This document shows positions 21,861 through 46,913 of a stretch of 49,265 bases of DNA, one piece after another; position 1 is the stretch's first letter; each line of letters opens with the position of its first letter. A program made the translations under genes and the position numbers. A model generated the notes under the pieces. That model did not search any database. It was given only the letters and a program-made list of their open reading frames with translations, and had not been told where the DNA came from. The stretch is from Chiloscyllium plagiosum (lineage: Eukaryota): positions 5,952,811 to 6,002,075 of the forward strand of contig NC_057756.1 in the NCBI RefSeq assembly GCF_004010195.1, given 5' to 3'.

Positions 21861-22243
21861 CATTGAAAGCTGCTCATTGTATTGCATATTTTGAGGATAA
21901 AGTTTTATCAGACCATTGGGCTGCTCTCCCATTAAGAGAGAGAGGTGGCTGGTGGTGGTTCAACATGAGGATCACGTGAGGGGAGAGGTAGAGAAGGAGA
22001 GACCTTCATCGTAACCATGGGGATGAAGCCACACTGTTAGCATCAGTCTACACCACACACTGACCATCCAGCCAACTGAGGAGCTAACCAACCCCTGAAT
22101 TTTCCAGTGCCTCTCGGTTAAGAATTATTTCATGTTTTTTTTTGTTTAATTCCACAGAAGTTGTCAAAGTAAGCTATGCTGGAGACATAAAGAAACGAAG
22201 GCCTTGAAACGAATCTGGTATTCTGGGACATCTTCACATCAAA

Positions 22244-22280
22244 ATGGCATTGTGGTCATTATTGTTTTTCATAAATTCAA
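22244..22280 (+). CDS. Leader exon 1, coding part (MALWSLLFFINS + 1 nt); exon starts at 22158 with 5'UTR
   Basis: Acceptor ttttttttgtttaattccacag ends at 22157; strong Kozak context (AAAATGG); hydrophobic peptide; donor a|gtacgt at 22281, phase 1. Confidence 0.72.
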
Positions 22281-22969
22281 GTACGTAGTTCTTTAAATGT
22301 AGAGTCAGAGAGGTCTACAGCACAGAAAAAGGCCCTTCAGCCCATCATGTGTGTGCCAGTCAAAAACAACCACCCCACTATCTCTAATCCCATTTCTCCA
22401 GCACTTGATCCATAGCCTTGGCAACGCAAGTGCTCATCTAAATCCTTCTTCAACATAATGAGGGTTTCTACCTCTCTCCCCCTTACAGGCAGTGAGTTCC
22501 AGATTCCCCACCATCCTTTGGGTGAAGAAACGTTTCCTCACACCCCCCTGCAAATTTCCTGCCCCCGCCTTCATTCTATGGCCCCTCCCCCGATTGCTGA
22601 ACCCTCCATCAAGGGGGTACGGTTTCTTCCTCTCTCCCCTATCTAAGCCCCATCATTATTTTAGACATCTCAGTCATGTCCCCCCTCTCTCAATCTCCTC
22701 TGGTCTGAGGAAAACAAGCCTTGTCTGTCCAATCTTTCTCCATCCCTGAAACTCTCCGGCCCCCCCACGGTAACATCCTGGTAAATCTCCCTGTACACCC
22801 TCTCCCAGTGCTATCCCATCCCTCCGAGAATGTGGATTCCAGAACGGCACACAATATTTTTTTGCTGTATGACTGAACAAACTCTTTTTTTTATCTGTTT
22901 GTACTCATTTGTAACCTTGTTACTGATGATTCATTCATTCATTATGTTTGAAGTTGTTCAAAAATGAAC

Positions 22970-23004
22970 CACCTGATGAAGGAGCATCACTCCGAAAGCT
23001 AGTG
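22970..23004 (+). ncRNA. Minimal type-I hammerhead ribozyme motif in a Penelope-derived repeat (about 22960-23055)
   Basis: CAC-CTGATGA-A-GGAG(CATCA)CTCC-GAAAGCT-A-GTG. Confidence 0.6.
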
Positions 23005-23129
23005 CTTCCAATTAAACCGGTTGGACTATAACCTGGTGTTGTGTGATTTTTAATCTCAAAAATGAAAGCATTCCCATCTATGCAAGGAAGTAAACGCTTA
23101 ATGCCTTCAGTAGGATGAGTAGAGGCAGA

Positions 23130-23545
23130 GACTATTTTCCAAATGGGGAAAGGCTTCGGAAATTTGAAGCACAAAGGGAATTGGGAGTCTGAGTTCAGGA
23201 TTCCCTTCAGGTTCACAGGCAGATTCAGTTGGCAGTGAGGAAGGTAAATGTGACGTTAGCATTCATCTCGAGAGGGTTAGAATACAAGAGCAGGGATGTC
23301 CTGCTGAGGTTGTATAAGGCTCTGGTCAGACCACATTTGGAATATTGTGAGCAGTGTTGGGCACCGTATCAAAGGAAGGCCGTGCTGGTCTTGGACGGGG
23401 TCCAGAGGGGGTTTACAGGAAAGATCCTGGGGATGAAGAATGTGTCAAATGAAGAGAGGTTGAGCTCTCTGGGTCTGTACACCATGGAGTTTAGAAGGAT
23501 GAGGTGCAATCTGATTGAAACTTATAAAATATTGAGAGGCCTTTT
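23130..23545 (+). mobile_element. CR1 ORF2 fragment
   Basis: [31 protein letters not shown]. Confidence 0.9.
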
Positions 23546-24108
23546 TATTTTGCAATTTATAATCTTTCTCATACTGCATTGCTCACACTATGAGGAGATA
23601 CTAAAATACGAAAGGTGAGGTGTGGGGACAGTGTACAAACGGTGCATGTGATATTCAAGACCATTAGATTTCGGAGCAGAATTCAACCATTCGGCCCAGT
23701 GACTCTGCTCTACCATTTGATGGCGGCTGATGTTTCTCAACCCCATTCTCCTGCCTTCTCCCTGTAACCCTTGATCCCCTTATCAATCAAAAACTTATCT
23801 AACTCTGTCTTCAATACACTCATTGGCCTCTACAGCCTTTTACAGCAATCAGTTCCACAGATTCACCATCATCTGGCTGAAGAAATTCCTCCTCATCTCA
23901 GTCCTAAAGGATCGTCCCCTCACTCTGAGGCTGTGCCCTTGGGTCCCAATCTCTCCTACTCATGGAAATATTTTCTCCATGTCCTCCCCATCCAGGCCCC
24001 CCAGATGAACAATACCCATGAAATTATATTATTACAGTCAATCATTTATACTTCGATCAACAGCTCGGGCTCATGTGGTAATCAAAGCCTGTTTTCATTG
24101 TCTTACAG

Positions 24109-24144
24109 TTCATTTGATGGTTCTGAAGTGCCAAGCTTCAACAG
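24109..24144 (+). CDS. 36-bp leader mini-exon 2 (IHLMVLKCQAST)
   Basis: Acceptor gttttcattgtcttacag|, donor cag|gtaaga, phase 1-1; completes a signal peptide with a C-Q-A small-residue cleavage motif. Confidence 0.78.
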
Positions 24145-25074
24145 GTAAGAACACCTTTTAATTTCGAATGCATGTGAGCGAAAGATTAATTGGGATGGAG
24201 GCTCATTTTGTACCTTTAAAACAAAAAGCAAAGAAAATTATAGCACAGGAACAGGGCCCTTCGGCCCTCCAAGCCTGTGCTGATCCAGATCCTCTATCTA
24301 AACATGTCACCTATTTTCAAAGGATCTGTATCCCTCTGCTCCCTGCCCATTAATGTATCTTTCTAGATACATCTTTAATGATGCTATGGTGCCCGCCTCT
24401 ACCACCTCCGCTGGCAATGTGTTCCAGGCACCCACCACCCCTTTCCGCACATATCTCCCTGAAACTTTTCCCCTCTCACCTTGACCTGGGGATTCCTAGA
24501 AATTGAGTCCCTCACTCTGAGGAAACCCTTCTAGCTATCCATCATGTCTAAACCTCTCATGACTTTGGAGATTCACTGAGTAAGTCCCATCCTGGTTTGT
24601 CTGACAATGCAACACCTCATATTTATCTATCTGCCATTCCTTGGCCCACTGGCCCAAGTTCCCATTGTACTCTTCGATAACCTTCTTCTCTGCCCGCTAT
24701 ATCACCCAGAACATTGTTCAATGATAAATATTTCCCAAAGAACTGAAATTAATTATTGCATTTGGCCAACTGTCTATTTGTTGTATGGGATGACCTATTT
24801 TAGCAGGAACTGCTTAGAAATCTATAAAATTTCAGTTGTGGCCCATTCTTTATGAGTCAGTTTGATCTTTGTGCATCTTTCAATCTCATTTCCACGATTG
24901 TGTGGGATTTTCCGCTGTTTGGAGACTCATAATAGTCTATAGGCCAGAAAATGGCCCTTCAGCCCATCAAGTCTGCACCTATCAAGAGCAACCACCTCAC
25001 TATCCTGTAGTCTCACTATCCCAGGAGTTGGCCCCATAGCCTTGTCTGCTTTAGCATCACACAAGCACATCTGC

Positions 25075-25535
25075 TTCTGACGTTCAATGTTGTTACCATC
25101 ACTGAGCCCCCACTATCGAGATTCTGGGGGTTACCTTTGAGAGAATCGAGCCATAACCTGTTAACATTTACTGGCAGTACCATCCCTGAATCACCACCTC
25201 CACCCCTCCCCCCACTCCCTGCCTCACTATCAACATTCTGAGGGTTACAACTGGGAAAGAATCTCACCATTGCCCCTTTACACTCAACTGTGTTACCATG
25301 ACTGAATTGCCTACTATTAGTACCCTGGGAGTTACCATCGAGAGAGAATCTAAACTTCGTGCCCTTGACATTCAATAGCATTATCATTTCTGAATCCCCC
25401 ACTGTCAAATTCTTGGGAGTTATCATTGAGAGAGAATCTAACCATCATCCCCTTGGTGCTCAATGCTGTCACCATCTTAGAATCCCCCCCAATAGCAACA
25501 TCCTTGGGATTACCTTTGAGAGAGAATCTAAACAC
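25075..25535 (+). repeat. About 5 degenerate tandem copies of an ~85-bp LINE-RT-derived unit
   Basis: Repeating ttcaat...accatc.ctgaatcccccact.tcaa..t..tggg.gttacc.ttgagagagaatcta. Confidence 0.7.
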
Positions 25536-26054
25536 TCAATGTGATGAGGATTTCTGCCTCTCCCACCCTTACAGGTAATGAGTTCCGGATTCCCCACCAC
25601 CCTCTGGTTGGAGAAGGCTTTCCTCACATCCCCTCTAATCCCCCGATCCCTTACCTTTAATCTATTCCACTTCTCCCCAGCCTTTAACATTGTTGCCTCT
25701 ATCAAGGGAGCAAGGTTTCTTCCTGACCACCCTATCATTACCCCCTCAACATTTTATACACCTTAACGAGGCAGCGTCTGCTATTTGTTCAGGTAATGTT
25801 CATTTTCAGTGAATTTTGTTAGGCTTCCCACCTGAGGTGACGTGACATATCGTTGCGAAGAATAATGGTGAGTTAGACATTTTTGCCATCATGGGTCTTA
25901 AGGACCAAAAAGGAATTTTACTGACATCTCATCAGAGACTGAACCAGTCCGTTTCATAACTCTCTTATACTTGTTTCTCTGATACACCCTAAGTGCTTGA
26001 CCAACTCCATTCCAATTCCAGCTTTCCTTTTGTCTCTGGTTAAACCCAATTCTC

Positions 26055-27165
26055 ACCTGGATGTAGGTTTGCTCACTGAGCTGAAAGGTTTGTTCTCAGA
26101 CATTTAATCACCATACTAGGTAACATCATCAGTGAGACTCCAGTGAAGCGCTGGTGGTGTGTCCCGCTTTCTATTTATGTGTTAGGTTTCTTTGCGTTGA
26201 TTATGTCATTTCCTGTGGTGATGCCACTTCCTGTTCTTTTTCTCAGAGTATGGTAGATAGGGTCTGAATCGATGTGTTTATTGATAGAGTTCCTGTTGGA
26301 ATGCCATTCTTCAAGGAATTCTCGTGTGTGTCTCTGTTTGGCTTGTCCTAGGATGGATGTGTTGTCCCAGTATAGGGTTCCCAGCAGAAGCAGGAATACA
26401 GAGATGAGAAAAAAACAGCTCTCTCAACCATCCAACCCAAACTTTGGGTCCTATGTGGTCAACATCTTTTTCACCAAGAAACAAAACAAATTAGAGGAAA
26501 CCTACAACACTATCAATAATGCCCTTACTGGCATAAAATTCACTAAAAAACAACAAACTGCCATTCCTAGATGTCACAGTAGAGCGAACAGCCAATGGGG
26601 AACTTCAAACCAGCGACTACAGGAAAACAACACATACAGACCAAATACGTAACTACAGAAGCAGTCATCCTAACCCCCACAAACATGCAGTAGGACATTA
26701 TTGCAACAAGCCATCACACAGTGCAGCACCAAGGCACTATGAAGAGCAGAATAGAAATACCTATATAGCGTATTCAAGAAGGACAGGTACCCAATAAACA
26801 CAGTCCACTGATGCCTCAGCAACAAACCCAAACAGCAGACTCAACATGCCCAGGAACCCTCGCCACTCTCCCCTACATCAAAGATATCTCTGAAATGACT
26901 TCTAGACTACTCAGACCCCTTGGCATCATGGCAGCTCACAAATCTACCAACACACTAAAACAGTGGCTAATGAACTTAAAAGACCCTATACAAACAACAA
27001 ATGAAATGAATGTCATTTTACAAAATACTTTGCAAGAACTGTAACAAACACTACATCAGACAAACAAGCAGAAAACTAGCCACCAGGGTGCACGAACACC
27101 AACTAGCCACCAAAAGACATGACCCACTATTATTAGTTTCCTTGCATACAGATGAGGAAGGACAT
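26055..27165 (+). mobile_element. Penelope-like element (RT C-terminus / GIY-YIG linker remnants) with an inverted terminal segment at 26055-26370
   Basis: ATLPYIKDISEMTSRLLRPLGI..AHK.TNTLKQ; inverted end carries a degenerate CTGATGA hammerhead-like motif. Confidence 0.75.
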
Positions 27166-27169
27166 CTCC

Positions 27170-27925
27170 TGTGATCTTCCATACCCCAAATCTGTTCAAA
27201 TCTGTCCAAATCTCCGATTTGATCAGTCTAAACCTGTCCAAATCTCGGACCCGAGCCACCAAATTGTTATGACACAGAGGTGAACGCCTCTGTTAATTAA
27301 ATCAAACACCCAGAAAAGCTCATTTCGCCTCATAATCTATTCAAGGATGAGTGACAGAGAACCCCCAAACTCCACTATTTAAAGAAAATTACATCATTTA
27401 TTTTTGAACTCCACCAGTGAACATTAAACGACTGTTCGTTTAAACTGCTTATAATCTGCCTCCAACTCTATAACAAATGCTGTTCCAAATAAACACTTAT
27501 TAAAAATACATCAACTTAATTTCAAAATCACACAGCCGCTGTCGACTTTTGTGTCTTTCTTCTTCTGGCTGAGGATCTCCCTAGGTCATCTCCTTTCCTT
27601 TTACTTCAAATACATTTCATATGAAAAGGTAGCTTTGATAGAGAGTGTTCCTAGTTTCTTGGACAGCAAGAGATGAGGTCTCTATGCATTTCCGTCTCAT
27701 CAGCAATTGCTCTCTGACCAATTAACTGATTGGTTAAATTCAAATTGTCGTCAAAACAGCAACCAAAACTCAGGTATCCATTTCACAGCTGAATGTTACA
27801 TATTTTCAATTTTACAGTCCACTCCTTGACTGCCATCTAGTCATGTGCACAGGTGCTTGTAATCTCTCAGTTCAAAACTGCAATTTCTCTCTTAAAAGTA
27901 AGTTCACACCTTCAATTTCACAACA
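27170..27925 (-). mobile_element. LTR (27265-27925) with adjacent primer-binding site and internal stub, Gypsy/ERV-type
   Basis: Termini tgttatga...tcacaaca; minus strand of 27242-27261 reads TGGTGGCTCGGGTCCGAGAT, resembling the tRNA-Pro PBS TGGGGGCTCGTCCGGGAT. Confidence 0.7.
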
Positions 27926-28446
27926 CAAGCACGCCTCTAAATCCTTCTTCAATGTGATGAAAGTTTCTGCCCCTCCCACCTCCACAGGCAGAGAGTTCTA
28001 GATTCCCCACTACCCTCTTTCCTCACATCTTCCTCAAAACCTCCTGCTCCTTACCTTCGCTCTGTGCCCCTTCCCTGGGGTCATTGATCCCTACATCAAG
28101 GGGTAAGGTTTCTTCCTGTCTCCCCTATCTATGCTCCCTCCTCATTTTATGTATCACAATCATGTCCCCCCTCTCTCTCAATCTCCTTTGCTCGGAGAAA
28201 AACAACCCCAGTCTGTCCAATCTCTCCCCGTCACTGAAACACTCCAGACCCCATGGTAACTTCCTGGTAAATCTCCCTCTGCACCCTCACCCAGTGCTAT
28301 CCCTTCCCTCCTAGAATATGGATTCCTGAACTGCACAGACTACTCTCACTGTGTGGCCGAACCAATGTTTTAGACAGTTCCATCATCGTGCCCCTGCTCT
28401 TAAACTCTCAGGTAATAAAGTCAAGTATTCCGCCATAAACCTTGTT

Positions 28447-29900
28447 AGAGTCATAGAGTCACAGAGATGTACAGTATGGAAACAGACTCTTTGGTCCAAC
28501 CTGTCCATGCCGACCAGGTAGCCCAACCCAATCTAGTCCCACCTGCCAGCACCTGGCCCATATCCCTCCAAACCCTTCCTATTCATATACCCATCCAAAT
28601 GACTCTTAAATGTTGTAATTGTACCAGTCTCCACCACTTCCTCTGGCAGCTCATTCCATACACACACCACCCTCTGTGTGAAAATGTTGCCCCATAGGTC
28701 TCTTTTATATCTTTCCCTCTCTCCCTAAACCTATGCCCTCTAGTTCTGNNNNNNNNNNNNNNNNNNNNNNNNNNNNNNNNNNNNNNNNNNNNNNNNNNNN
28801 NNNNNNNNNNNNNNNNNNNNNNNNNNNNNNNNNNNNNNNNNNNNNNNNNNNNNNNNNNNNNNNNNNNNNNNNNNNNNNNNNNNNNNNNNNNNNNNNNNNN
28901 NNNNNNNNNNNNNNNNNNNNNNNNNNNNNNNNNNNNNNNNNNNNNNNNNNNNNNNNNNNNNNNNNNNNNNNNNNNNNNNNNNNNNNNNNNNNNNNNNNNN
29001 NNNNNNNNNNNNNNNNNNNNNNNNNNNNNNNNNNNNNNNNNNNNNNNNNNNNNNNNNNNNNNNNNNNNNNNNNNNNNNNNNNNNNNNNNNNNNNNNNNNN
29101 NNNNNNNNNNNNNNNNNNNNNNNNNNNNNNNNNNNNNNNNNNNNNNNNNNNNNNNNNNNNNNNNNNNNNNNNNNNNNNNNNNNNNNCACTGGTCACAGGC
29201 CTCCAGTCTGAAAAACAACCCTCTACCACCACCCTCTGTCTTCTCCTTTGAGCCAGTTCTGTATCCAAATGGCTAGTTCTCCCTGTATTCCATGAGATCT
29301 AACCTTGATAATCAGTCTCCCATGGGGAACCTTGTCGAATGCCTTACTGAAGTCCATATAGATCACATCTACTGCTCTGCCCTCATCAATCCTCTTTGTT
29401 ACTTCTTCAAATAATTCAATCAAGTTTGTGAGACATGATTTCCCACACACAAAGCCATGTTGACTATCCCGAATCAGTCCTTGCCTTTTACATGTACATG
29501 TACAGTCCTTGCCAAATACATGTACATCCTGTTCCTCAGGATTCCCTCCAACAACTTGCCCACCACTGAGGTCAGGCTCACTGGTCTAAAGTACCCTGGC
29601 TTGTCCTTACCATCCTTCTTAAACAGTGATACCATGTTAGCCAACCTCCAGTCTTCCGGCACCTCACCTGTGACTATAAATGATACAAATATCTCAGCAA
29701 GCGGCCCAGCAATCACTTCTCTAGCTTCCCACAGAGTTCTCGGGTACACCTGATCAGGTCCTGGGGATTTATTCATCTTTATGCGTTTCAAGACATCCAT
29801 CACTTCCTTCTCTGTAATATGGACAGTCTGCAAGGTGTCACCATTTCGCTACTTTCTATATCTTCCATATCCTTTTGTACAGTAAATACTGATGCGATTA
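28447..29900 (-). mobile_element. Young CR1, RT-containing, spanning gap 28749-29186
   Basis: KSPGPDQVYPR...RPVSLTSVVGKLLE...DVIYMDFSKAFDKVPH. Confidence 0.92.
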
Positions 29901-30163
29901 ACCACTTTTTCCACCTGTATACCTTAATGTGTAACTAATCTCTCTGTCCCTCAGTGCTTCCCAGGGTCCTAGTGTCCATCATCTTTACCTTTGCCTTGTT
30001 TCTCCTGCCCAAGTCCATCACACCACAATGCAAGATTTCTGCAGGAAGCAAGCTGAGGGTAAAACCACGGGGGAGACAAAGATTTTGGATCTGTTCACTA
30101 CACCCAGTGGTAGAAGCCCCTTTGGAGGATGATTGATTGTCTGTGACCTCTTGTGCCCTTCAG

Positions 30164-30478
30164 AAACTGTCCGAATGCGTTTGGCTGATGGTGGAGGACC
30201 GTGCTCCGGCAGAGTGGAACTCCTTATCAACGGCACTTGGGGCGCAGTTTGTGACGATGACTGGGACCTGCTCGATGCAAACGTTGCCTGCAAGCAGATG
30301 GCATGTGGGGCAGCCAGACTGGCCCCTCATGGGGCCCATTTCGGAGCCACTGCTGCCCCCTTTTGGCTGGATGATGTTGAGTGCAGAGGCACTGAGTCTA
30401 ACCTAATCCAGTGCCCTGCAAACACTTTGGGAAAACACAACTGTGGCTCTGGCGAGGCAGCGTCTGTCATCTGCACAG
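30164..30478 (+). CDS. SRCR domain exon 1 (group B, 8 Cys)
   Basis: ccttcag|...cacag|gtaagg, 315 bp; RL.DG..PCSGRVE...WGAVCDDDWD...FWLDDVEC.G.ES.L.QC...HNC...VIC. Confidence 0.95.
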
Positions 30479-30584
30479 GTAAGGTCACTTTGAATGCAAA
30501 CTGTAACTCCTGGGGTGTCACAGGGTTCACTTCCCGGACCTCAACTATTTACAATTTAGATAAACAATCTTCAAGTCGGGACAG

Positions 30585-31650
30585 GGTGTAACGTAGCAAC
30601 ATTCACGGTTGATACTAAAATACGTGGGATCGCAGGCTGTGATGTGGAGATAAAGAGTTTACAGATGGATATTGTTCGGCTGGGCAAATGGGTCAGAGTC
30701 TGGCAGATTAAATTTAATGTGGATAAATGTGAGGTTGGCCAGAAAAATAAAAGAGCACCTTGTTATTGAAATGGGAAGCAGATCAAACACAGAGGGATCA
30801 GGGTGCCCTTGTTAATGCGTCGCAGATAGTGGGTATGCAGGGACAGCAAATAATAAAGGCGAATGGGAATCTGGCATTCAATGCAAAATTCAATGGATTA
30901 TAGAAGTAAAAACAATGTAGTTACAGTTTTATAAGGTGTTGCTGACACGACATTTGGAATATTGTGTCCAGTTTTGGTCTCCTTATTTGAAGAAGGATAT
31001 GGTGGCACTGGAGGCAGTTCAGAGGAGGGCCATAGGTTGATTCCAGGGGTGACAGGGCTGTCGTACTATAAGCTTGGGCTTATAGTCACTGAACTTCAGA
31101 GAATGAGGGGGGATCTGATTGAGGTGCCACATATAAAATGCTAAAGTGGATTGATAAGGTGGATGTTGAACAGATGTTCCCCTGTGTGGAACGGTCTTGA
31201 AGAAAAAGTCATAGGCACAGAGGGAGAGGAGGTAAGCTCAAAACTGAGATGAAGAGAAACTATTTCTCTCAGAAAACTGTGAATCTGTGGAGCTCACTGC
31301 CCCTGAGTGCAATGGAGGCAGAATCCACCGACAGATTTAAAAAAGAAATAGATACATTTCCAATGCAAGGCAAGACAAAAGGCTATGAGGAGGAGGCAAG
31401 GAAGTGATGTTGAAACCTGAGGTTGACCCATGCTGAATGTCGACTCCTCTTGCCAACTCCCCTTGCCCTTCTGATGCTGCTTGACCTGCTCTGCTTTTTC
31501 CAGCTCCACATTTTATCGACTCTGACTTTTCAACATCTTCATTCCTCATTATCTCCATGAAACCAGGATTAGATCAGCCATGATCATGTTAAATGGCTGA
31601 GTGGATTTGGAGGGCTGAATTGCCTACTCCCGCTCCTAATTCCTAAGCTC
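30585..31650 (+). mobile_element. Degenerate CR1 (RT end to 3' UTR)
   Basis: Remnants of [16 protein letters not shown] and RGDLIE motifs. Confidence 0.7.
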
Positions 31651-32008
31651 CCACGAATGCTTCCCTACTGGGAAGTCAAACAGAAGGACCTTTCATGTGG
31701 ATTTTAATTTTACAATAAAAAAACAAAGTTTCTTTGAAATGCTGCGCCATTAAAATGATACAGCGTTGAAGGGGTTGTGTTGTCCATGCTGATACAAGGA
31801 CACCCTTTCTAATCCCATTTCCCTGTATACCATCCATAGCCCTGCAGCTTATAGTACATATGGTGTGCATCCAGATACTTTTAAAAGAGTTTAAGGTCAA
31901 TGCCTCCATGACCAACTCAGGCAGTGAATGCCAGACACACATCACTCTCTGCATAAAGGATGTTTCTCCCCAGGTTCCTTCTGTTACTTAGGTTGAATTA
32001 ATTTTTTT

Positions 32009-32314
32009 TAGATTAGATTACAGTGTGGAAACAGGCCCTTCGGCCCAACAAGTCCACTCCGACCCGCCGAAGCGCAACCCATCCATACCCCTACATTTAC
32101 CCCTTACCTAACACTACGGGCAATTTAGCATGGCCAATTCACCTGACCTGCACATCTTTGGACTGTGGGAGGAAACCGGAGCACCTGGAGGAAACCCACG
32201 CAGACACGGGGAGAACGTGCAAGCTCCACACAGTCAGTCGCCTGAGGCGGGAATTGAACCCGGGTCTCAGGCGCTGTGAGGCAGCAGTGCTAACCACTGT
32301 GCCACCGTGCCGCC
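32009..32314 (-). mobile_element. HE1/V-SINE, full length
   Basis: Reverse complement of the SINE consensus. Confidence 0.92.
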
Positions 32315-32411
32315 CACCTCCATCCACCAAGGATTTTGATCTCTCCGCCAAGGGAAACAGGTTCCTCCTCTCTACTCTATCTCTATCGCCCTGCACAATT
32401 TTGTATACTGC

Positions 32412-33457
32412 AGTAACAAAGAGGATTGCTGAGGGCAGAGCGGTGGATGTGATCTATATGGACTTCAGTAAGGTGTTCGACAAGGTTCCCCATGGGAGAT
32501 AGATTAGCAAAGTTAGATCTCATTGTTTACAGGGAGAACTAGCCATTTGGATACAGAACTGGCTCAAAGGTAGAAGACATAGGGTGGTGGTGGAGGGTTG
32601 TTTTTCAGACTGGAGGCCTGTGACCAATGGAGTGCCACAAAGATTGGTGCTGGGTCCACTACTTTTTGTCATTTACATAAATGATTTGGATGCAAACATA
32701 AGAGGTACAGTTAGTAAGTTTGCAGATGACNNNNNNNNNNNNNNNNNNNNNNNNNNNNNNNNNNNNNNNNNNNNNNNNNNNNNNNNNNNNNNNNNNNNNN
32801 NNNNNNNNNNNNNNNNNNNNNNNNNNNNNNNNNNNNNNNNNNNNNNNNNNNNNNNNNNNNNNNNNNNNNNNNNNNNNNNNNNNNNNNNNNNNNNNNNNNN
32901 NNNNNNNNNNNNNNNNNNNNNNNNNNNNNNNNNNNNNNNNNNNNNNNNNNNNNNNNNNNNNNNNNNNNNNNNNNNNNNNNNNNNNNNNNNNNNNNNNNNN
33001 NNNNNNNNNNNNNNNNNNNNNNNNNNNNNNNNNNNNNNNNNNNNNNNNNNNNNNNNNNNNNNNNNNNNNNNNNNNNNNNNNNNNNNNNNNNNNNNNNNNN
33101 NNNNNNNNNNNNNNNNNNNNNNNNNNTAGACAAAGTCTTTTCCCTGGGGTTGGGGAGTCCAGAACTAGAGGGCATAGGTTTAGGGTGAGAGGGGAAAGAT
33201 ATAAAAGAGACCTAAAGGGCAACTTTTTCACGCAGAGGGTGGTACGTGTATGGAATGAGCTGCCAGAAGATGTGGTGGAGGCTGGTACAATTGCAACATT
33301 TAAGAGGCATTTGGATGGGTATATGAGTAGGAAGGATTTGGAGGAATATGGGCCAGTTGCTGGCAGGTGGAACTAGATTGGGTTGGGATATCTGGTCGGC
33401 ATGGACGTTTTGGACTGAAGGGTCTGTTTCCATGCTGTACATCTCTATGACTCTATG
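32412..33457 (+). mobile_element. Young CR1 spanning gap 32731-33126
   Basis: DVIYMDFSKVFDKVPH...GVPQ..VLGPLLF...SKFADD; 3' tail ctctatgactctatga. Confidence 0.92.
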
Positions 33458-33674: not shown

Positions 33675-33676
<2 letters not shown>

Positions 33677-34956: not shown

Positions 34957-35267
34957 AACAATTCCAGGTCAGAATTGTGGATGGAGACAATAAGTGTTCG
35001 GGGAGAGTGGAAGTCTTTTACAAAGCAACATGGGGCACAGTCTGCGATGATGGGATCTAAGTGATGCTCAGGTTGTCTGCACCGAGTTGAGTTGTGGGTT
35101 CGCCCACGAGGCGCCCAGAAGTGCCAAATTTGGGGAAGGCCTATCATCGATTTGGCTGGATTCTGTCCAATGCAATGGGTCTGAATCAAACCTCTGGCAG
35201 TGCCAGTCAAGCGCCCTGGGTCAGCATGACTGCCAACACAGCGAGGATGCATCTGTAATCTGCTCCA
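34957..35267 (+). pseudogene. SRCR domain exon 2, frameshifted
   Basis: ccacag|...tcca|gtaagt, 311 bp versus 315 bp for the other SRCR exons. Reads [32 protein letters not shown] then G-I-TAA (35058-35060); the rest of the domain ([10 protein letters not shown]...[10 protein letters not shown]) is in another frame. Confidence 0.9.
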
Positions 35268-37430: not shown

Positions 37431-37909
37431 AGTGAAAGTTTGATGAGGCCTGTTGAACAGTCAGCATAATTCCCTGTACTGAGGGATCTCGGGTCACTTA
37501 CCGAAGCAGTTAGGGAATTCCAACACTTCCTGAGGAAGTGGTGAGTGTGAATACAATTACAGCATTTCGAAGACATTTGGATCAGTACATGGAAAGGAAA
37601 GGTTTGGAGGGATGTGTGCCAGGAGAAAGCAAGTGGGACTAGTTTAGTTTGGGATTATGTTCGACATGGACTGGTTAGCCCGAAGGCTCTGTTACCTTGC
37701 TGTATGACTCCATAACAAAGCCAGAGGGATAAGGGTGGGTGTGTGGGAAAATTGAAAGTTACACACTTGGTATAGTCATATCAGGAAGTCAAACTGAAGC
37801 CTTGAAGAGCATCCATGGGCTATTGGGGGAGAACATGTTACCACGTTTAGTTTCTTGGTCAAACATCTACTGTTTGAGCTTCATAAATTTGTGTGTCGTC
37901 AATGACAGG

Positions 37910-38100
37910 TGAAAAATGTGTTGCAGGAAAAGTGCAGCAGGTCAGGCAGCATTCAAGGAGCAGGAGAATCGACCTTTGAAGAAGGGCTTATGCCCGAAAC
38001 GTCGATTCTCCTGCCCCTTGGATGCTTCCGGACCTGCTGCGCTTTTCTAGCAACACATTTTTCAGCTCTGATCTCCAGCATCTGCAGTCCTCACTTTCTC
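37910..38100 (+). mobile_element. Penelope-derived foldback element
   Basis: aaaatgtgttgc.ggaaaag...cttttctagcaacacattttt inverted arms with a gaagaagggcttatgcccgaaacgtc core. Confidence 0.7.
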
Positions 38101-38785
38101 CTCGTCAATGATAGGGCCAATTAAGTATGTAAAAGCTTTGTGTAGAATTTAGAACATCAAGTAGTGATCTGATCAAAGATATTAACAGGAAGACATTGGG
38201 TCGAGAAAGACAAGCTATTTCCATTAGTTGGGTGTTCGATAACTAGACAGGGTACAGTCTGAGAATGAGGGCCAGACAATCTCGGAGAGATGTTCGGAAA
38301 CATTTCCACGCACAGAGGGTGCAGGAGGTTTTCAGCTGCCTTCCACAAATGGCAGTGGATGTGGATTCAATGTTAGTTTTTGATCTGTGAAGCAAAGGCG
38401 TTAAGGAGTTAGGGGGCCAAAGGTAGGTCACAAACAGCCAGGATCTCACTGCACAGACATGAGGGGCTGAATGGCCTACTTCCATCTTCCCGTGCCGACA
38501 ATGTGTGGAGCAGGAGACAGAGCGATAAAGTGCTCCACTGTGGGTGACTGCGGTGCTCCATTTAAACAGTGTGTTATATTCACCCCAGCAAAATTGAGCC
38601 TGTGTGTTCCTCAATTCATTTAGAAGCAGCTGTGGTCGAGTTGATATGATACAGCGAAAGTCAAAGAACGGCAGATGGCTCAAAATAGAGTTGGATATTC
38701 TGGTTTCACATGCAGTAACCTTGACTGTCTGTGTCAGTTCTGAGTGGGAGATAATGCCAGTATATTGTTTTACATTTATCTGCAG

Positions 38786-39091
38786 ACCACCCACCAAAGC
38801 CCATTTTGTCGCTTGACATGAAACGTGAAATCTTCACACCAATGGACACACTCCAATTAAAATGTACTACTCGGAGTTATTATGTGGGGAGTACCTTTTA
38901 TTTGAAGAAAACAGGAGACAGTTCCTTTGGTGCCACTCAAACCGCTCCCGAAGGGGCGTATAGCATGATCTTCTTCATCCACGATATGGATCTGAGCCAC
39001 AGTGGGAACTACACCTGTCACTATCAAACAAACAGATCAGGATCGCCTCGAAACTCAAGCAGCAGTGACTCTGTGAAGGTGGTCGTCACAG
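38786..39091 (+). CDS. C2-type immunoglobulin domain exon (LILR/KIR/CHIR/IGSF1-like signature)
   Basis: tttatctgcag|...cacag|gtaagt, 306 bp, phase 1-1. HPPKPILSL...LKC...FYLKKTG...FFI...SGNYTCHY...SDSVKVVVT, with 50 aa between the cysteines and no C-strand Trp. Confidence 0.9.
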
Positions 39092-39624
39092 GTAAGTAAG
39101 GGAGAGTGACCAACAGAAACACACTGTCCACTGTCACAATCCATCAGTCCCATCAAACCATCCCCAGCGTCCTGTTCTGTGCCACATTGCAATCAGGAAA
39201 CAAGCTTTGTCGCTTTGTGACATGATAAACAAAACCAGAAATTGCTGGAAAAACTCAGTTGGTCTGGCAGCATCTGTGTGGAGAGAGCAGAGTTAATATT
39301 CGAGCCCAGTGACCACACTTGCGAATTTTGGTTTTATTTATTGTTGTCAAATATACCGAGATACAGTGAAAAGTGTTGTTTCCCATGCTCTACAGGCAGA
39401 TTGTACTGTACAGAGTCAGGATACAGAGAAGGTGCAAGGAGTGTCATTAACATTTGGAAGGTCCATTCATAAGTCTGATAACAACGGGGAAGAAGCTGAT
39501 CTTGAATCTGTTCATACTTGTGTACGTCTGCCTGATGGAAGAGGGTGGAGTAGAGTACAACTGGTATGGGAGGGGTCTTTGATTATATTGGTTGATTCCC
39601 CAAGTCAGTGGGAAGTATAGTTGT

Positions 39625-39822
39625 AGCTGAAAATGTGTTGCCGGAAAAGCACAGCAGGTCAGGCAGCATCCAGGGAACAGGAGAATCGACGTTTCGGGCA
39701 TAAGCCCTTATGCCCGAAACGTCGATTCTCCTGTTCCCTGGATGCTGCCTGACCTGCTGCACTTTTCCAGCAACACATTTTCAGCTCTGATCCCCAGCAT
39801 CTGCAGACCTCACTTTCTCCCA
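39625..39822. mobile_element. Young Penelope-derived palindromic element with a 13-bp TSD
   Basis: 80-bp arms at 39625-39704 and 39707-39786; gaagtatagttgt duplicated at 39612-39624 and 39823-39835. Confidence 0.85.
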
Positions 39823-40577
39823 GAAGTATAGTTGTGGTCGATGGAAGGAAGGCTGTTTGGTGTGATGGATTGGGCTGTGTTTGTGACTCTCTGTAGTTTC
39901 TTGCGGTCTTGGGAAAGCTGTCATACCGAGCTGTGATGCATCCAGACAGAATGCTTTCCATGATGCATCTATAAAAATGGGTAAGAGTCATTGTGGACAT
40001 GCTGAAAATCCTGAGCCTCCTGAGGAAGGAGAGGCATTGGTGCATTTTGTCATGACAAGATTGTAGCGAGGAAAATGTTGGCGTACTTCGGGGGAAGGAG
40101 GGGGAGATGGAGGCCAGGGAGAGGAAATGACCATTGGGCAGATATAGGACAGAATAATGTCAGCCTGGGAGGGTGAACTGTTGCTAATGGGGACCAGAAT
40201 GAGTTGTTTGTGGTATCAGTCCACCTGATATCTGGGGATGAGGCTATGGAGTTGGGAGAAGGTGTCTCATACCTTAAAATTGTTGAATTAGACATTGAGT
40301 CCAGAAGGTGACAGAGTTCCCAAGTGGAAAATGAGATGTGACTCTTGGAGCTTGTACTGAGTTTCCCTGGAACTCTGCAACAATCCTGAGACAGAGATGT
40401 TTACCAGGTAACAGGGTGGGGTATTGTAGTGGTAAGCAGCTGGAAGCTGAGGGTCTTGTTTGCAGAAAGAATGTAGGAGCTCTGGAAAGCAGTCACCTAG
40501 TGCACACATCACTTCCCCAATGCAGAAGAGACCATATTGTGACCAGCAAGTACAGTACATTGAGGGAATGGTTCTTT

Positions 40578-40877
40578 ATAGATTAGATTACATTACAGTT
40601 TGGAAACAGGCCCTTCGGCCCAACAAGTCCACACCGACCCACCGAAGCGAAACCCACCCATACCCCGACATTTACCCCTTTACCTAACACTATGGGCAAT
40701 TTAGCCTGGCCAATTCACCTGACCTGCACATCTTTGGACTGTGGGAGGAAACCGGAGCACCCGGAGGAAACCCACGCAGACACGGGGAGAACGTGCAAAC
40801 TCCACACAGTCAGTCGCCTGAGTCGGGAATTGAACCCGGGTCTCTGGCGCTGTGAGGCAGCAGTGCTAACCTGTGCC
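40578..40877 (-). mobile_element. HE1/V-SINE
   Basis: Reverse complement of the SINE consensus. Confidence 0.9.
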
Positions 40878-40879
40878 AG

Positions 40880-42110
40880 GTAAATTCGATCATGGCTGTT
40901 CTGTTTCTCAATTGCATTCTCCTGCCTTCTCCCTGTAGCCCCTGATCCCCTGACTAGTAACGAACCTATCCATCTCTGTCTTAAAGACACTCAATGACTT
41001 GGCCTCCACAGCCCTTTGTGACAACATGTTCCACAGATTCGCCACCGTGTGGCTGAAGGAATTCCTCCTCACCTCAGCTCAGAAGGTAGAAATGTCAAAT
41101 ACTAGGGGGCATAGGTTTAAGGTGAGGGGAGAAAGTTCAAAGCAGATGTGTGAAGCAAAGCTTTTTGTACAGAGGATGATAGGTGCGTGGAATGCACTCT
41201 AAATCCCGTCACTCTGAGGTTATGTGCCTGTGTCCTAATCTTCTCTCCCAAGGGAAACATCTTCTCCATGTCCAGGTCTCTCAGAACTCTGTACGTTTCA
41301 ATCAGATTCTCCCTCATCTTTCTAAACTCCATGGAGTACAGACCCAGAAACCTCAGGCTCTCTTCATAAGACATGTTGTTCATCCCCAGGATCTTCCTTG
41401 TAAATCCCACGTGGACCCCTCACAGTCCAGCACATCCTTCCTTAGATATGGGGTCTGAAACTGCTCACAATGTTCCAAATGTGGTCTGACCGGAGCCTAA
41501 TACAGCCTCAACAGCACAACTCTGCTCTTGTATTCTAACCCTCTCAAAATGAATGCTAACATTACATTTGTCGTCCTAATTGCCAACTGAAGCTTCCTGT
41601 GAACCTGAAGAGAACCTGAACTCGGATTCGCAAGGCCCTGGGCACTTCAGACTTATTCTATTTCGACAATAGACTATGCCTCTATTCTTCCGACCAAAGT
41701 GCGTATTCTCACATTTTCCCACACCACGTTCCATCTGCCACTTCTTGACCCACTCTCCCAGCCTGTCCAAGTCCTTCTGCAGCCTCCCCACCTCCTCACC
41801 ATTACACGACCCTCCACCTATCATTGTACAAACTGCACAGATAGAAAACATGTCCTCAGTTCCTTTGTGTAGATTATGAAGATATGGTGTGAATAGTTGT
41901 GGTCCCTACACTGACCCCTGTGGAACTTCACTAGTCATCGGCTGCCATCCTGAAAAAGACCTCTTTATCCCTACTCTGTACTTGCTGCCAGTCAGCCAAT
42001 CCTCTATCCATGCCAATACCTTGCCCCTGATATCACAGACTCACATTTCACAGCCTCCCTGTACAGCACATTGGCTGTGACCTACTGGAACTCCAAATAG
42101 ATTACATCCA
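40880..42110 (-). mobile_element. CR1 fragment(s)
   Basis: LQKDLDRLGEWVKKWQM and FTRKILGM remnants. Confidence 0.8.
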
Positions 42111-42139
42111 CTAGTTGTCACCTCCTTCTAGATTTAAAC

Positions 42140-43306
42140 AGCTGTCGAGGCATACAACATTGAAACAGACCTTTCAGTCCTACTCATCCATGCTGGCCAC
42201 GTTTCTTAAACTAAACTAGTCCCACTTGGCTTGCGTTTTGCCCTTTCCTATCCATGGACCTGCCCAAATACCTTTGAAATGTTATAACTGTACCTGCATC
42301 TGCTACTTCCTCTGGCAGTTCACTCCACATGCACACTGCCCTCTGTGTGCAAATGTTGCCCCCGTCAGGACCCTTTCAAATCTTTCCCTGCACACCGCAA
42401 ACCTATGCCCTCTAGTTTTGAACTCTGACACAACACTATGGCTTTCAAGAGGTTATTTTGTCCTGTGTTTTGTTTTGAAGAGAGGTTGTAAGGCAGAGGC
42501 GACTGGCCAGCTACTGAAGACCACTTGAGCAAACAGCGTGAGGCCTTGGGTATTTTTTGAAAGGTGGAACAATGGAAGCAACCTTGCTGTGGCCAGCTCT
42601 CACAGACCAGGATGTCCAGGATTTGGTTTAGGTTTGAGGTTTAGGCTTAAGCAGAAGCTAATGGGCTCTCAAAGGAATTGGAAGCTTCAATGAACATCTC
42701 TTGGCTTTTACTTTCTCTGAATCTTCTCTCGATGTGTTTTACCTCATGGATTGGAGAAGTGCATATGAGAATTTGTGTCTGAATTTACCTTTTTTTGCCA
42801 AGGGGTGTATTTATGGAATGTTACTGTATTGGGACAGTTAATTAGTGACAGGCGCAGTGTCTATTATTTGGTTAAGTTTACAGTTGAGTTAAGGTATTCT
42901 AAATTCCTCCTCTTTCTTTCTTTGTGTTTTAACTAGTGTTTAAATAAACTGTGTTTTATTAAACTTCGAGTAGTTTGACCAGCCGCATTGCATCCGGAAC
43001 AGATTCTCTAAAATTCATTCACCTTCAAAGCAAGAAAATGTTGGGGTCTAGATTACTGCCTTAAAATATGTTGAGGGGGTCTGATCTGGTCGACAAGAAC
43101 ACCCCCCACCCCAGGTACAAGACCTTTCCCATTCACTTTATCTATGCCACTCGTAATTATATAAATCGCTGTCAGGTCACCCCTCAACCTCCTCTGTTGC
43201 GGGGAATTAAGTCCCAGTCTATTGAGCCTCTCCTGATAACTCAAAACCTCCAACCCTGGTAATGATTTTGTAAATCTTTTCTGCCCCCTCTCCAATTTAA
43301 TAATAT
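42140..43306 (-). mobile_element. CR1 3' fragment interrupted by a solo LTR, ending at the SRCR3 acceptor
   Basis: Minus-strand IIKLERGQKRFTKSLPGLEVLSYQERLNRLGL...RRLRGDL. Confidence 0.85.
42426..43098 (+). mobile_element. Solo LTR
   Basis: Interrupts CR1 at ttttgaactc|...|acacccccc with an imperfect actc/acac duplication; internal AATAAA; related to 34280-34922. Confidence 0.65.
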
Positions 43307-43308
43307 AG

Positions 43309-43623
43309 ACTTGATCCAAATACGGTTGGTGAATGGGACGGATGCGTGTTCCGGGAGAGTTGAACTCAATTACAAGGACATTTGGGGAGCAGTTTGCGAT
43401 GATGCGTGGGACCTTCGGGACGCGGACGTTGCTTGTAAACAAATGGGCTGTGGACCAGCCAGATCAGCCCCAGGGAGCGCTCAGTTTGGCGAGGCCACTG
43501 GAACCTTCTGGTTGGATGATGTTGAGTGTAAGGGGCATGAGTCACACTTGCTCCAGTGTCCGTCGAACCCAGTTGGAAAACACAACTGCAACGCAGGAGA
43601 GGCAGCGGCTGTTACTTGCTCAG
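43309..43623 (+). CDS. SRCR domain exon 3 (group B, 8 Cys)
   Basis: taatatag|...ctcag|gtgtgt, 315 bp; LIQIRLVNGTDACSGRVE...WGAVCDDAWD...FWLDDVEC...HNCNAGEAAAVTCS. Confidence 0.93.
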
Positions 43624-43740
43624 GTGTGTTTTGTGTCATTCAATTGTTCCTCTTCAATGTAACCAAGATATTTTGAAGGGAAAGATAATCGCCGAGAACT
43701 ACACTGATGATTATAAATACATGAAAACGTGCATAATTAA

Positions 43741-44860
43741 AGAGTCATAGAGTCATATAGCACAGAATCAGGCCCTTCGGCCCAACACTGCAATGCCCAC
43801 CCAGATTCTTAAACTGAACTAGTCCAATTTGCTTGTGTTTGGCCCATATCCCTCTAAACCTTTCCTATCCATGTACCCATCTAGATGCCTGTTAAATGTT
43901 GTGATTGTACCCACCTCTATCACTTCCCTCTGGCAGCTCATTCCATACACGCACCCCGCTCTGTGTGAGAACATTGCTGGTCAGGTCCTCTTGTCTTATA
44001 CTTGTACCCTCTAGTTTTGGAATCCCCTACCCTGAGGAAAAGACCTTGCCTCCTCACCTTATCTATCCCCCTTGTGATTTCATAAATCTCTGGAAGGTCA
44101 TCCCTCAGTCTCCGACGCTCCAGGGATAAAGATCCCAACCCATCCAGCCCCTCCTTATAACTCAAACCTTCCAGTCCCGGCAACATCCTCATCAAGTTTT
44201 TCTGCACCCTTTCCTGTTTCACAACATCCTCCCTATAAGAGTGACCAGAATTATATGTGTTCTGAAAATGACCTCACCAATGTCTTGTGCAGCCATAACA
44301 TGCCATCCCAACTCTAACACACATTGCTCAGACCGATGAAGGTGAGTGTGCCAAATGCCTTCTTAATGACCCTGTCCACCCATGACACCAACAATGTACC
44401 TGCACCCTCTGTTCAATAACACTCCTCATGGTCCTACCATTAACTGTGTAAGTCCTGCCTTGATTTATCTTACCAAAATGCAACACCTCACGTTGATCAA
44501 AATTAAACTCCATCTCGCACCCCGAACCCCATTGGCCCAGCTGATCAAGATCTGATTGTACTCTTAGACAACCGTCTTCTCTGTCCACCACCCCACCAAT
44601 GTTGGTGTCATCTGCAAACTTACTGACCATGCCTCCTAAATTCTCATCCAAATTGTTGAGATAAATGACAAACCACAGTGGACCCAGCACTGATCCTTGT
44701 GGGACACCATTGGTCACAGGCCTCTAGTCTGAATAACAACCCTCTACCACCATCTTCTGCCTCCTCCTATCAAACCAATTTTGTAACCAATTACTTTCCC
44801 TCCCTGGATCCCATGTAATCTAGCCTTACTAACCAGTCAACCATGTGGGATCTTGTCGAT
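43741..44860 (-). mobile_element. CR1 with RT remnant
   Basis: GVPQGSVLGPLWF...VSKFADDT. Confidence 0.9.
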
Positions 44861-46598
44861 ACAGTAAGGTGCTGGGTGCTATGAAGAGAATGTCAACTAT
44901 TCCACGCACATCAATTTGGAGTCATAGAGTACAGAGGAGGCCCTTCAGCCCATCTAGTCTGAGTGGATCTATGTTTTCCCATTTTGCCTCACTAGTTCAA
45001 CAGCCTTAAATGTTATGACATTTTGAGCCCAATTCCAAGTAATTTTTAAAAGTTGGGACATTTCCCACCTCAACTACCCGCCCAGGCAATGCATTCCATA
45101 CCCCCACACCCTCTGGGTGAATTTTCGTCCCCTCAAATCACCTCCAAACCTTCACTTTAAATTATTGCCCCCCTAGTTATTGACCCTGTGCCTGAAAGGA
45201 ACAGAATCCTCCAACCGCTAAGCAAAGTGCACATAGTGTAATTGGTTCCCACGTTACCTTTGAGCTGTGCCTGATCAATGAAATGATTTGTTGCGATAAT
45301 GTGAGTCCTCAACACCGCCATAGGCTTGCTGAATCACTGATGCTGAGAAATCAGAGAAACTCAGACTAACACAAGTGGTCCCCAATTCTTGTGCCTCACC
45401 CCTCATTCCTGCTATTGCAAATTAAAAACCAACCTCAGTTTTGATACACAGAAACAGAAAACCTCACTTTGTTATTGCACATAGACACACAGATAGAACA
45501 TTCCCCCACTGGACAGCAGCACAGGCTCTACCGAGATCAAACTGACCTGCGTCGACCCACAGAGAAGAACATTGGGAGGGGCAGTGGTGCGTTTTACTTT
45601 TACATTCAGTTACCAGATGTGGGCTTTATTGCCCATCCCTAATTGCCCCAGAGGGTGGTTCAGTGTCAACCACATTACTGTGAGATCTGGAGTCACATGT
45701 AGGCTTAGATCCGGGTAGAGACAGGTGAATTCTCCTCCTCTCCCCAGGGTGAGGGCATCGCTGGCCAGGCCTCCATTTATCACCCAACCCTAATTGCCCC
45801 AGAGGGCAGTTAAAAGTCAACCACATTGCTGTGGGTCTGGAGTCACATGTAGGCCAGACCAGGTAAGGATGGCAGATTTCCTTCCCTAAAGGACATTGGG
45901 AACCGGAATTTTCTGACAATCAGCAATGCTTTCATGGTCGCCATCGACTCTTAATTCCAGATTTTTATTCAATTCAAATTCCACTATCTGCCATGGGAGG
46001 ATTCGAACCTGGATCCTGAGAACAACAATAATACCACAAGGTCATCACCTCCCGTTACATTGGTAAATTCGTAAATCAGGAGAGTTTTTCGACCATGGTC
46101 ATCATGCAATACTTAATTTCAGATGTTTTAAAATTTAATTCAATTTGCTTCTGTCTCACAATGTTCAAACATCTGAATGGAAGCAGAAGAGACAAAAAAA
46201 CTATCGATGACGCAGCCTCACCTCTCAAAACGACACGTTCATTAAAAAGGAATATGTTTATGGGATATGGAGAAGACCATTGAGCCAAATCCGTCATTCA
46301 ATAGCTGACCTATGGCCTAACGTCATCGACCCGCCTTTGGTTCCTATTCACTTAATGCTTTTGCTTAACAAAACCTTACCTCTCTCAGATTTAAAACTAA
46401 CAACTGATCCAGCACTCTTTGTAGAAGAGAGTTCCAACCCTCTTCTACCCTGTGCGTGTTAATGTGCTTCCTAACCTCTTCCCCGGCCCGAATTCTCAGA
46501 CTATCTCTCCCTAGTTCTAGAATCAGTAACCAGTAGAAGTACTCTATGAAGTTTATCTTAAGAATCTGCAATATCTTAAATCCGCTTCCCTCCTTTAG

Positions 46599-46913
46599 AT
46601 CCGATTGCACTGCGATTCATGAATGGGACGGACAAGTGTTCTGGGAGAGTTGAGCTCTATTATAACGACAGCTGGACAGCCATCTGTGATGATGGTTGGG
46701 ACATAGATGATGCCAATGTCGTTTGCCGTCAACTGGGCTGTGGGCAAGCCACGTCGGCTCCAGGGGGTGCCCACTTTGGCATGGTACCTGCAGAGTTCTG
46801 GTCATATACAGTCAAATGTAAAGGGACTGAGTCTAACCTCGTCAAGTGTCAAACAAGGTCAATGGAAGGAGACCACTGCAGATCAGGATCTGCAGCTTTT
46901 GTTATTTGCTCAG
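46599..46913 (+). CDS. SRCR domain exon 4 (group B, 8 Cys, divergent)
   Basis: cttccctcctttag|...ctcag|gtaaag, 315 bp; PIALRFMNGTDKCSGRVELYYNDSWTAICDDGWD...HCRSGSAAFVICS. Confidence 0.93.

Follow-up and report, generated by a model that had tools for sequence, protein, structure and literature searches.

An arginine-bearing SRCR/LRC-type Ig mosaic gene, partly decayed, in the shark Chiloscyllium plagiosum

SRCR domains of group B are encoded by one exon per domain and carry eight cysteines; those of group A are encoded by two exons and carry six. The SRCR domains of DMBT1, CD163, WC1 and CD6 bind microbial or altered-self ligands, and CD163, WC1/SCART, CD5 and CD6 have long cytoplasmic tails with signalling tyrosines. 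To our knowledge, these last receptors contain no immunoglobulin (Ig) domain, and their transmembrane (TM) segments are uncharged. Here, a gene is described in which exons for group B SRCR domains (SRCR-B) flank a single exon for an Ig domain of the type found in receptors of the leukocyte receptor complex (LRC). It is located in a stretch of 49,265 nucleotides (nt) from the shark Chiloscyllium plagiosum (C47:5952811-6002075 of a 3.56-Gb assembly with 101,977 contigs). This whole stretch is referred to as the window.

In mammals, the SRCR and LRC-Ig superfamilies are regarded as distinct, and FCRLS has been described as a unique exception (PMC7940838). FCRLS occurs in mouse, rat, dog and other eutherians and was called a "unique" Ig-like/SRCR-B chimera, the product of an Ig-receptor gene that recombined with an SRCR gene (PMC7940838). 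Its existence contradicts the premise, adopted in a first-pass annotation of the window, that no mammalian group B SRCR protein has an Ig domain (PMC7940838; PMC4016189). For LRC receptors, the most conserved element is a TM segment with the motif NxxR; all activating members except the KIRs carry a TM arginine in this motif, and the arginine is essential for association with FcRγ (PMC6557307). Activating members are further marked by a DYT motif before the arginine motif and by acidic residues where the TM segment ends on its C-terminal side (PMC6557307).

The gene is read here as encoding a type I membrane glycoprotein of hemiscylliid sharks with SRCR-B domains and one LRC-type Ig domain. 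The protein would be an adaptor-coupled activating pattern-recognition receptor, present in C. plagiosum as a partly decayed copy. The probability assigned to this reading as a whole is about 0.6.

The gene and its domains

Seven exons with AG acceptors and GT donors were located on the plus strand between 22244 and 46913 by inspection of the sequence and of all splice borders, and every junction was in phase 1. Their order is split leader, SRCR, SRCR* (frameshifted), Ig, SRCR, SRCR, and an eighth exon past the end of the window encodes the TM segment and the stop. All seven stand where the first-pass annotation had placed them when it proposed the order leader-SRCR-SRCR*-Ig-SRCR-SRCR, with AG/GT borders and phase 1 throughout. 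Its start at 22158 follows an upstream 'cag', the actual ATG being at 22244, and its end at 46913 is the last base of SRCR4. The sequence further downstream, which it had proposed to read for TM exons, was found to hold one with an arginine, a tail of four residues and a stop. The features are as follows (window positions; E, expectation value):

22244..22280, plus strand: leader-1, with the ATG at 22244 and signal peptide residues 1-12; phase 1 end; GT donor
24109..24144, plus strand: leader-2, 36 nt, with the rest of the signal peptide; phase 1/1; AG acceptor and GT donor
25765..25792, plus strand: SRCR exon stub, 28 nt, the last ~9 codons; GT donor kept, no acceptor
30164..30478, plus strand: SRCR1, 315 nt; phase 1/1; Pfam SRCR E = 6.5e-30; group B, eight cysteines
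34957..35267, plus strand: SRCR2*, 311 nt; Pfam SRCR E = 7.9e-21 (part after the frameshift)
38786..39091, plus strand: Ig exon, assigned to the LRC-type C2 class, 306 nt; phase 1/1
43309..43623, plus strand: SRCR3, 315 nt; phase 1/1; Pfam SRCR E = 4.7e-31; group B, eight cysteines
46599..46913, plus strand: SRCR4, 315 nt; phase 1/1; Pfam SRCR E = 1.5e-28; group B, eight cysteines
52379..52479 (window-equivalent positions of L010:3114-3214), plus strand: TM/stop exon, outside the window, 5,465 nt beyond SRCR4; found via orthologous proteins

Leader-1 matches the N-terminus of the Chiloscyllium punctatum orthologue P0001 at 11 of 12 residues. Leader-2 aligns with residues 12-23 of P0001 and residues 15-27 of the Stegostoma tigrinum protein P0003, and SRCR1 is 93% identical to residues 129-239 of P0001. 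A second signal exon of 36 bp is typical of KIR/LILR genes; this was unconfirmed in papers and was not used as evidence. No further SRCR or Ig exon was obtained when 149 kb, from 40 kb upstream to 60 kb downstream of the window, were searched by tblastn with the gene's own domains. The Ig exon is single copy in the genome, its next-best own-genome match being 35% identical. All three N gaps of the window are intronic or upstream of the gene.

SRCR domains were tested with Pfam PF00530 at a cut-off of 26.1 bits, which all four SRCR exons exceeded. SRCR1, SRCR3 and SRCR4 each have eight cysteines in translation and consist of one 315-nt exon each, and the closest solved relatives of the SRCR exons in a PDB comparison were CD163, PIT54, CD5L, CD6 and DMBT1. 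Their earlier assignment to group B is thereby upheld. The SRCR repertoire of the genome is greatly expanded, with at least 150 SRCR-B exons at E <= 1e-8 in several clusters (C13:59.87-60.44 Mb, C44:14.97-15.22 Mb, C32:3.08-3.17 Mb, C28:43.11-43.16 Mb, C42:12.73-12.74 Mb and C47:8.88-8.90 Mb).

Relatives were retrieved by a word-indexed search with the Ig exon. Four NCBI models, all with SRCR and Ig Pfam domains, are listed with the identity of their Ig domain to the window exon, their length and their domain order (S, SRCR; I, Ig):

P0001, Chiloscyllium punctatum: Ig identity 95%; 1101 residues; SSSISSSISS-TM
P0002, Hemiscyllium ocellatum: Ig identity 90%; 477 residues; SSISI; partial model
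P0003, Stegostoma tigrinum: Ig identity 81%; 687 residues; SSSISS-TM
P0004, Cetorhinus maximus: Ig identity 48%; 996 residues; SSSSISSIS; partial model

These proteins are orthologues or close paralogues of the C. plagiosum gene product, and SRCR-Ig-SRCR interleaving is common to all of them. The 95% identity of the Ig exon to the C. punctatum protein agrees with the first-pass view that the gene is from a shark. P0001 and P0003 have the same split leader, the same arginine-bearing TM segment and a tail of four residues. The orthologues are named DMBT1-like, a mis-annotation that had been foreseen for this gene, yet a Pfam scan of P0001-P0004 detected neither CUB nor ZP domains, SRCR and Ig families being the only ones present. 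In DMBT1, CUB and zona pellucida domains follow the SRCR array, whereas in the shark gene the TM/stop exon comes directly after SRCR4. The shark gene is not DMBT1; it encodes a bona fide group B SRCR protein.

For the Ig exon, Pfam returned Ig_3 (E = 1.2e-5), Ig_2 (7e-5) and ig (1.8e-3), all under the curated cut-offs for a single exon; Ig_2 and Ig_3 reach these cut-offs in the orthologues. Among 55 matches to PDB chains, the strongest were LILRA6 (1.4e-8) and PIR-B (3.3e-8), followed by LILRB3, LILRB1/2, FcαRI and GPVI. NKp46 and CHIR-AB1 ranked lower, and no FcγR or FcεRI chain was among the 55. An AlphaFold model of the domain, computed from a 12-sequence alignment, had a mean pLDDT of 93.6. 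Its best Foldseek match was LILRB1 D3D4 (TMq 0.83), and further matches were GPVI, LILRB4, LILRA2, LILRA5, FcαRI, OSCAR, KIR2DL3, LAIR-1, NKp46 and CHIR-AB1. TMq values were 0.71-0.83 for LRC members, compared with 0.59-0.64 for FcγRIII at a root-mean-square deviation of ~5 Å. The criterion used for the LRC is that Ig-like domains are closer to LRC proteins than to other Ig superfamily families (PMC6557307). By PDB sequence search and predicted-fold comparison the Ig exon is LRC-type, as had been proposed, with LILR, PIR-B, FcαRI and GPVI at the top by sequence and LRC folds at the top in Foldseek. The nearest Ig-only proteins are labelled IGSF1-like, A1BG-like, LILRA or DM43-like; such relatives came from turtles, alligator, lizards, Tasmanian devil and two sharks (Heterodontus, Carcharodon).

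Transmembrane exon and alternative readings

The TM exon reads ...L-Y-P-I-E-Q-L-F-R-L-C-L-...-L-E-L-R-R-K-S-stop. In this pattern (Y-x3-Q-x-x-R-...-E-L-RRKS), an arginine is placed near the outer face of the membrane and a glutamate at the inner end, and the cytoplasmic tail consists of the four residues RRKS, without signalling motifs. Compared with activating LRC TM segments, the shark gene has the arginine and an acidic C-terminal residue (the glutamate), but Gln in place of the Asn of NxxR and LYP in place of DYT. The canonical NxxR form was seen in reptile Ig-only LRC-like matches. This gene, the mosaic P0018 of Heptranchias and the Ig-only protein P0051 of Heterodontus have a shark variant, in which Y is followed at a distance of three to four residues by E or Q, then by two further residues and R-L-C, with an acidic residue at the inner end. 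A ζ/γ-type TM exon with a conserved aspartate is present in the C. plagiosum genome at C12:49769721-49769807 (PF11628, 59.7 bits).

In the mechanism proposed, shuffling of phase-1 exons would have joined parts of SRCR genes and of LRC-like genes into the mosaic long before C. plagiosum existed. The SRCR domains, and perhaps the Ig domain too, would bind microbial or altered-self ligands, by analogy with the SRCR receptors named above. The TM arginine would pair with the TM aspartate of an adaptor of the FcRγ/CD3ζ type carrying an immunoreceptor tyrosine-based activation motif, and the protein would act on leukocytes as an activating pattern-recognition receptor. A full-length product of 474 residues would require skipping of the frameshifted SRCR2.

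Several observations weigh against this reading; they concern the transcript, the state of the copy and the TM segment. Co-splicing of SRCR and Ig exons at the window gene is strongly, if indirectly, predicted from orthologous gene models and two transcript-like contigs of relatives. The NCBI relatives, and all named relatives, are automatic predictions. A transcript of the window gene itself was not seen: among 15 sequencing-run holders of the Ig exon, none is recorded as RNA (several are merely guessed to be RNA), and no junction-spanning candidate occurred among short proteins of 55-177 residues. The Ig exon might accordingly be an orphan or part of another transcript, and the SRCR+Ig models artefacts of gene prediction in which neighbouring exons were merged. 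This is considered highly improbable. The Ig exon is situated between SRCR exons on the same strand and in matching phase 1/1, with one leader and one TM exon for the whole array, and no separate leader or TM exon for it was detected in the 149 kb that were probed with the leader, TM and domain exons of the gene. It is open, and it is conserved between SRCR exons in sharks of three orders, at 95, 90, 81 and 48% identity in the four other sharks that keep the SRCR-Ig-SRCR order. A second interleaved SRCR/Ig locus exists in the same genome. The two transcript-like contigs of the family combine SRCR and Ig domains in one open reading frame (ORF). P0206 has 1409 residues on a 4,592-nt Logan contig, with a signal peptide, the array SIISISIIIISII, a TM segment and a tail, and clusters at 90% with a model from Leucoraja erinacea; P0011 has 1469 residues on a 4,733-nt Logan contig, with the array SIISIIISIIISII. 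Both contigs are 92-93% coding and are hard to explain except as mRNA, which argues for co-splicing in family members, not in the window gene itself. More weight is given to the possibility, still judged unlikely, that the locus is a pseudogene or null allele in decay, with a functional version of the mosaic receptor in related species, and that no full-length protein is made here. The copy in the C. plagiosum assembly is partly decayed, with one SRCR exon a stub and one frameshifted. SRCR2 is 4 nt shorter than its three 315-nt paralogues; the gap is clean (columns 95-98 of the DNA alignment), lies directly behind the conserved C-D-D codons and is accompanied by an in-frame TAA near 35051, so that the coding sequence assembled from all exons terminates at residue 164 and the copy may be a pseudogene. 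Compared with P0001, the two halves of SRCR2 show 100% and 95% identity, but not in one and the same frame. In the stub at 25765-25792, which lacks an acceptor, only the C-terminal motif NEAASAICS aligns (P0001 residues ~121-129); its intact counterpart is the first SRCR domain of the orthologues. Directly upstream is repeat-like sequence, and this repeat, abutting the stub at 25765, may have destroyed the exon. The ectodomain comprises five units, one of them broken, compared with ten in P0001 and six in P0003, and the first SRCR and the SRCR2 equivalent are intact in both orthologues, unlike in C. plagiosum. Domain number, however, differs among orthologous models in any case, and each of the remaining six coding exons, like the TM exon, is free of stops, has kept its AG/GT borders and is 89-96% identical to the orthologue. 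Because all exons are phase 1/1, skipping of SRCR2 restores an ORF of 474 residues that runs from the ATG through the stop of the TM exon and contains seven N-glycosylation sequons. The 4-nt deletion may be an assembly error, given a draft assembly with N gaps, or may be confined to one haplotype, mark a skipped pseudo-exon or be the sign of a dying gene.

A protein might also be made that does not act as an activating receptor through an adaptor. Such a protein could be a scavenger, either shed or adhesive, with a non-signalling arginine, or a receptor with another partner; this is regarded as improbable, though far less so than an unconnected Ig exon. The TM segment reads QxxR and does not match NxxR to the letter, with Gln instead of Asn at -3 from the arginine and LYP in place of DYT. 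Its likeness to other TM segments does not go beyond the motif and is weak but directed, with phmmer E values of 0.0018 for P0018 and 0.17 for P0051 in a 152-protein database. A PF11628 search of the genome gave no clear FcRγ, the second match (C7:33969329, 23.3 bits) being under the cut-off, and the adaptor exon on C12 presumably resembles CD3ζ more than FcRγ. A survey from 2014 reported neither FcRγ nor LRC-like C2-only genes in the sharks it examined (PMC4016189). The relatives P0004 and P0007 end without a TM segment, and other family members have long tails with tyrosine motifs instead. Three paralogues of the TM exon, 57-65% identical, are found on contig C50 (474046, 2432496 and 7104585). 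In two of them the arginine is replaced by Cys or His, and no SRCR or Ig exon lies within 30 kb upstream of any of the three, so that they are uninformative on the donor gene of the TM exon; they may be orphan exons or pieces of genes with very long introns. On the other side, an intramembrane arginine combined with a four-residue tail is hard to explain otherwise, the arginine is kept in two orthologues and in Heptranchias P0018, and a ζ/γ-type TM exon bearing an aspartate exists in the genome. The reading as a partly decayed copy of a putative adaptor-coupled activating receptor is preferred.

Breadth of the family and genomic surroundings

When 1.84 billion representative proteins were searched exhaustively by HMMER, 467 of them matched the Ig exon at E <= 1e-3. 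SRCR domains were scored with a profile built from the window's own SRCR exons. They were present in 53 of 152 proteins (the best 150 of the 467 matches plus P0001 and P0003), and 89 of the 206 proteins retrieved overall had both SRCR and Ig domains. The best 21 single-domain matches to the Ig exon all came from SRCR-positive proteins, as did 33 of the top 40, a count inflated by shared ancestry because many of them are elasmobranch.

Species names were taken from 30 representatives and two search tables, and the distribution is a lower bound because most of the 206 proteins were not named. SRCR+Ig mosaics were found in at least 11 elasmobranchs (Chiloscyllium, Hemiscyllium, Stegostoma, Cetorhinus, Heptranchias, Scyliorhinus canicula, S. 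torazame, Heterodontus, Leucoraja, Pristis and Narcine), at least three teleosts (Sardina, Epinephelus and Seriola) and at least three caecilians (Geotrypetes, Microcaecilia and Rhinatrema). Named amniote matches were all Ig-only. The first-pass annotation had described the gene as an exon-shuffled SRCR/LRC chimera; the mosaic of both domain types holds, but a one-off it is not, as the SRCR+Ig family is large and widespread. Its hedge that the architecture might be ancient rather than unique was well placed, given the recurrence in elasmobranchs, teleosts and caecilians.

The second interleaved locus of C. plagiosum is on the minus strand of the unplaced contig C99971, in the order Ig, Ig, SRCR, SRCR, Ig, Ig. 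Its Ig exons are 30-35% identical to the window Ig exon, and the splice sites of the locus are proper where readable. In the basking shark Cetorhinus maximus, the cluster of P0014 (domain string ISIIIISII) has 25 members at >=90% identity, which are spread over numerous short contigs and named WC1.1-like, DMBT1-like or 'group B protein-like'. This is suggestive of an SRCR+Ig multigene family that has expanded recently in this species.

Misleading automatic names (DMBT1-like, M130-like, WC1.1-like, IGSF1-like and SSC5D) conceal the family as a whole. A search of the full-text literature, the coverage of which excludes subscription journals, yielded no description of SRCR+LRC-Ig receptors from fish or amphibians. 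PMC10707392 and PMC10751288 gave no mention of SRCR, DMBT1 or LRC, and PMC13337447 gave one unrelated mention of SRCR (sea-urchin gene counts). The gene belongs to a large receptor family of sharks, rays, bony fish and caecilians that is annotated in databases and apparently undescribed.

The LRC-type Ig fold, the arginine-bearing TM segment and the Ig-only relatives from sharks (P0051, P0043) together suggest that the LRC receptor type is older than the bony fish. Tentatively, and with somewhat less than even confidence, SRCR-LRC-Ig mosaics may represent a family of paired receptors for pattern recognition, activating and inhibitory, that spans the gnathostomes, predates the split of cartilaginous and bony fish, is retained in elasmobranchs, teleosts and caecilians and was lost in amniotes. 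If so, no older LRC-type modules would be known than the Ig domains and R-containing TM exons of these mosaics, both the LRC receptor type and its adaptor-coupled TM segment would date back to the base of the jawed vertebrates, and SRCR-Ig shuffling would be ancestral and not an oddity of mouse FCRLS. To combine SRCR-B and LRC-type Ig domains is routine in elasmobranchs and is seen in teleosts and caecilians as well; the genes concerned often form large families. The present data, those on Ig-only relatives from sharks among them, suggest that the absence of LRC-like C2-only genes and of FcRγ from sharks, as reported in 2014, needs revisiting (PMC4016189). For comparative immunology, the gene offers a concrete candidate for activating pattern-recognition receptors of sharks. 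The value of this particular copy is lower, as it is already modelled in the sister species and carries lesions.

LRC framework genes include CNOT3, PRPF31 and TTYH1 (PMC6557307). Synteny with such markers, which the first-pass annotation had considered, was not found: Not3 is on C39, Tweety on C21 and C24, Prp31_C gave no match, and none of them is on C47. Linkage may exist beyond contig scale, as the contigs are not chromosomes.

Among the ORFs of the surrounding 149 kb, judged by eye, the only non-repeat coding signals were a C2H2 zinc-finger ORF ~27 kb upstream of the window start and a histone H2B-like ORF ~33 kb downstream of the window end. Introns and flanks are rich in reverse-transcriptase fragments of long interspersed elements and in repeats resembling short interspersed elements (e.g. 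28583-29848 and 32017-33376), and two of the three N gaps lie between reverse-transcriptase-like ORFs. A 2.1-kb minisatellite at 14383-16501 consists of 151 copies of a 14-nt unit with 76% match and abuts the N gap 13965-14382. It yields long spurious minus-strand ORFs in all three frames.

Comparison with known receptors

With CD163, WC1/SCART, CD5 and CD6 the shark gene has in common tandem, single-exon, eight-cysteine SRCR-B domains on a type I membrane protein. It differs from the WC1/CD163 type in its charged TM segment and in the RRKS tail followed by the stop.

With LILRA, PIR-A, FcαRI, GPVI, OSCAR, NKp46, TARM1 and CHIR-A it shares the type of Ig domain. Activating LRC receptors also resemble it in the TM arginine near the outer face, the acidic inner end and the very short tail (PMC6557307). 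Their ectodomains are Ig-only and their TM motif is NxxR, whereas in the shark gene SRCR exons flank a single Ig exon and the motif is QxxR.

FCRLS is the sole described vertebrate Ig-like/SRCR-B chimera that was found, and its mosaic nature is common to the shark gene. It has N-terminal FCRL-type Ig domains and one C-terminal SRCR domain, is secreted without a TM segment and is of eutherian origin (PMC7940838). The shark gene, in contrast, has four SRCR exons, one internal LRC-type Ig exon and a TM segment with an arginine. The second leader exon measures 21 bp in FCR/FCRL genes, FCRLS included, and 35 bp in CD5L (PMC7940838), compared with 36 nt in the shark gene. As FCRLS is unlike the shark gene in every structural respect, the shark family is regarded as an independent and far older mosaic.

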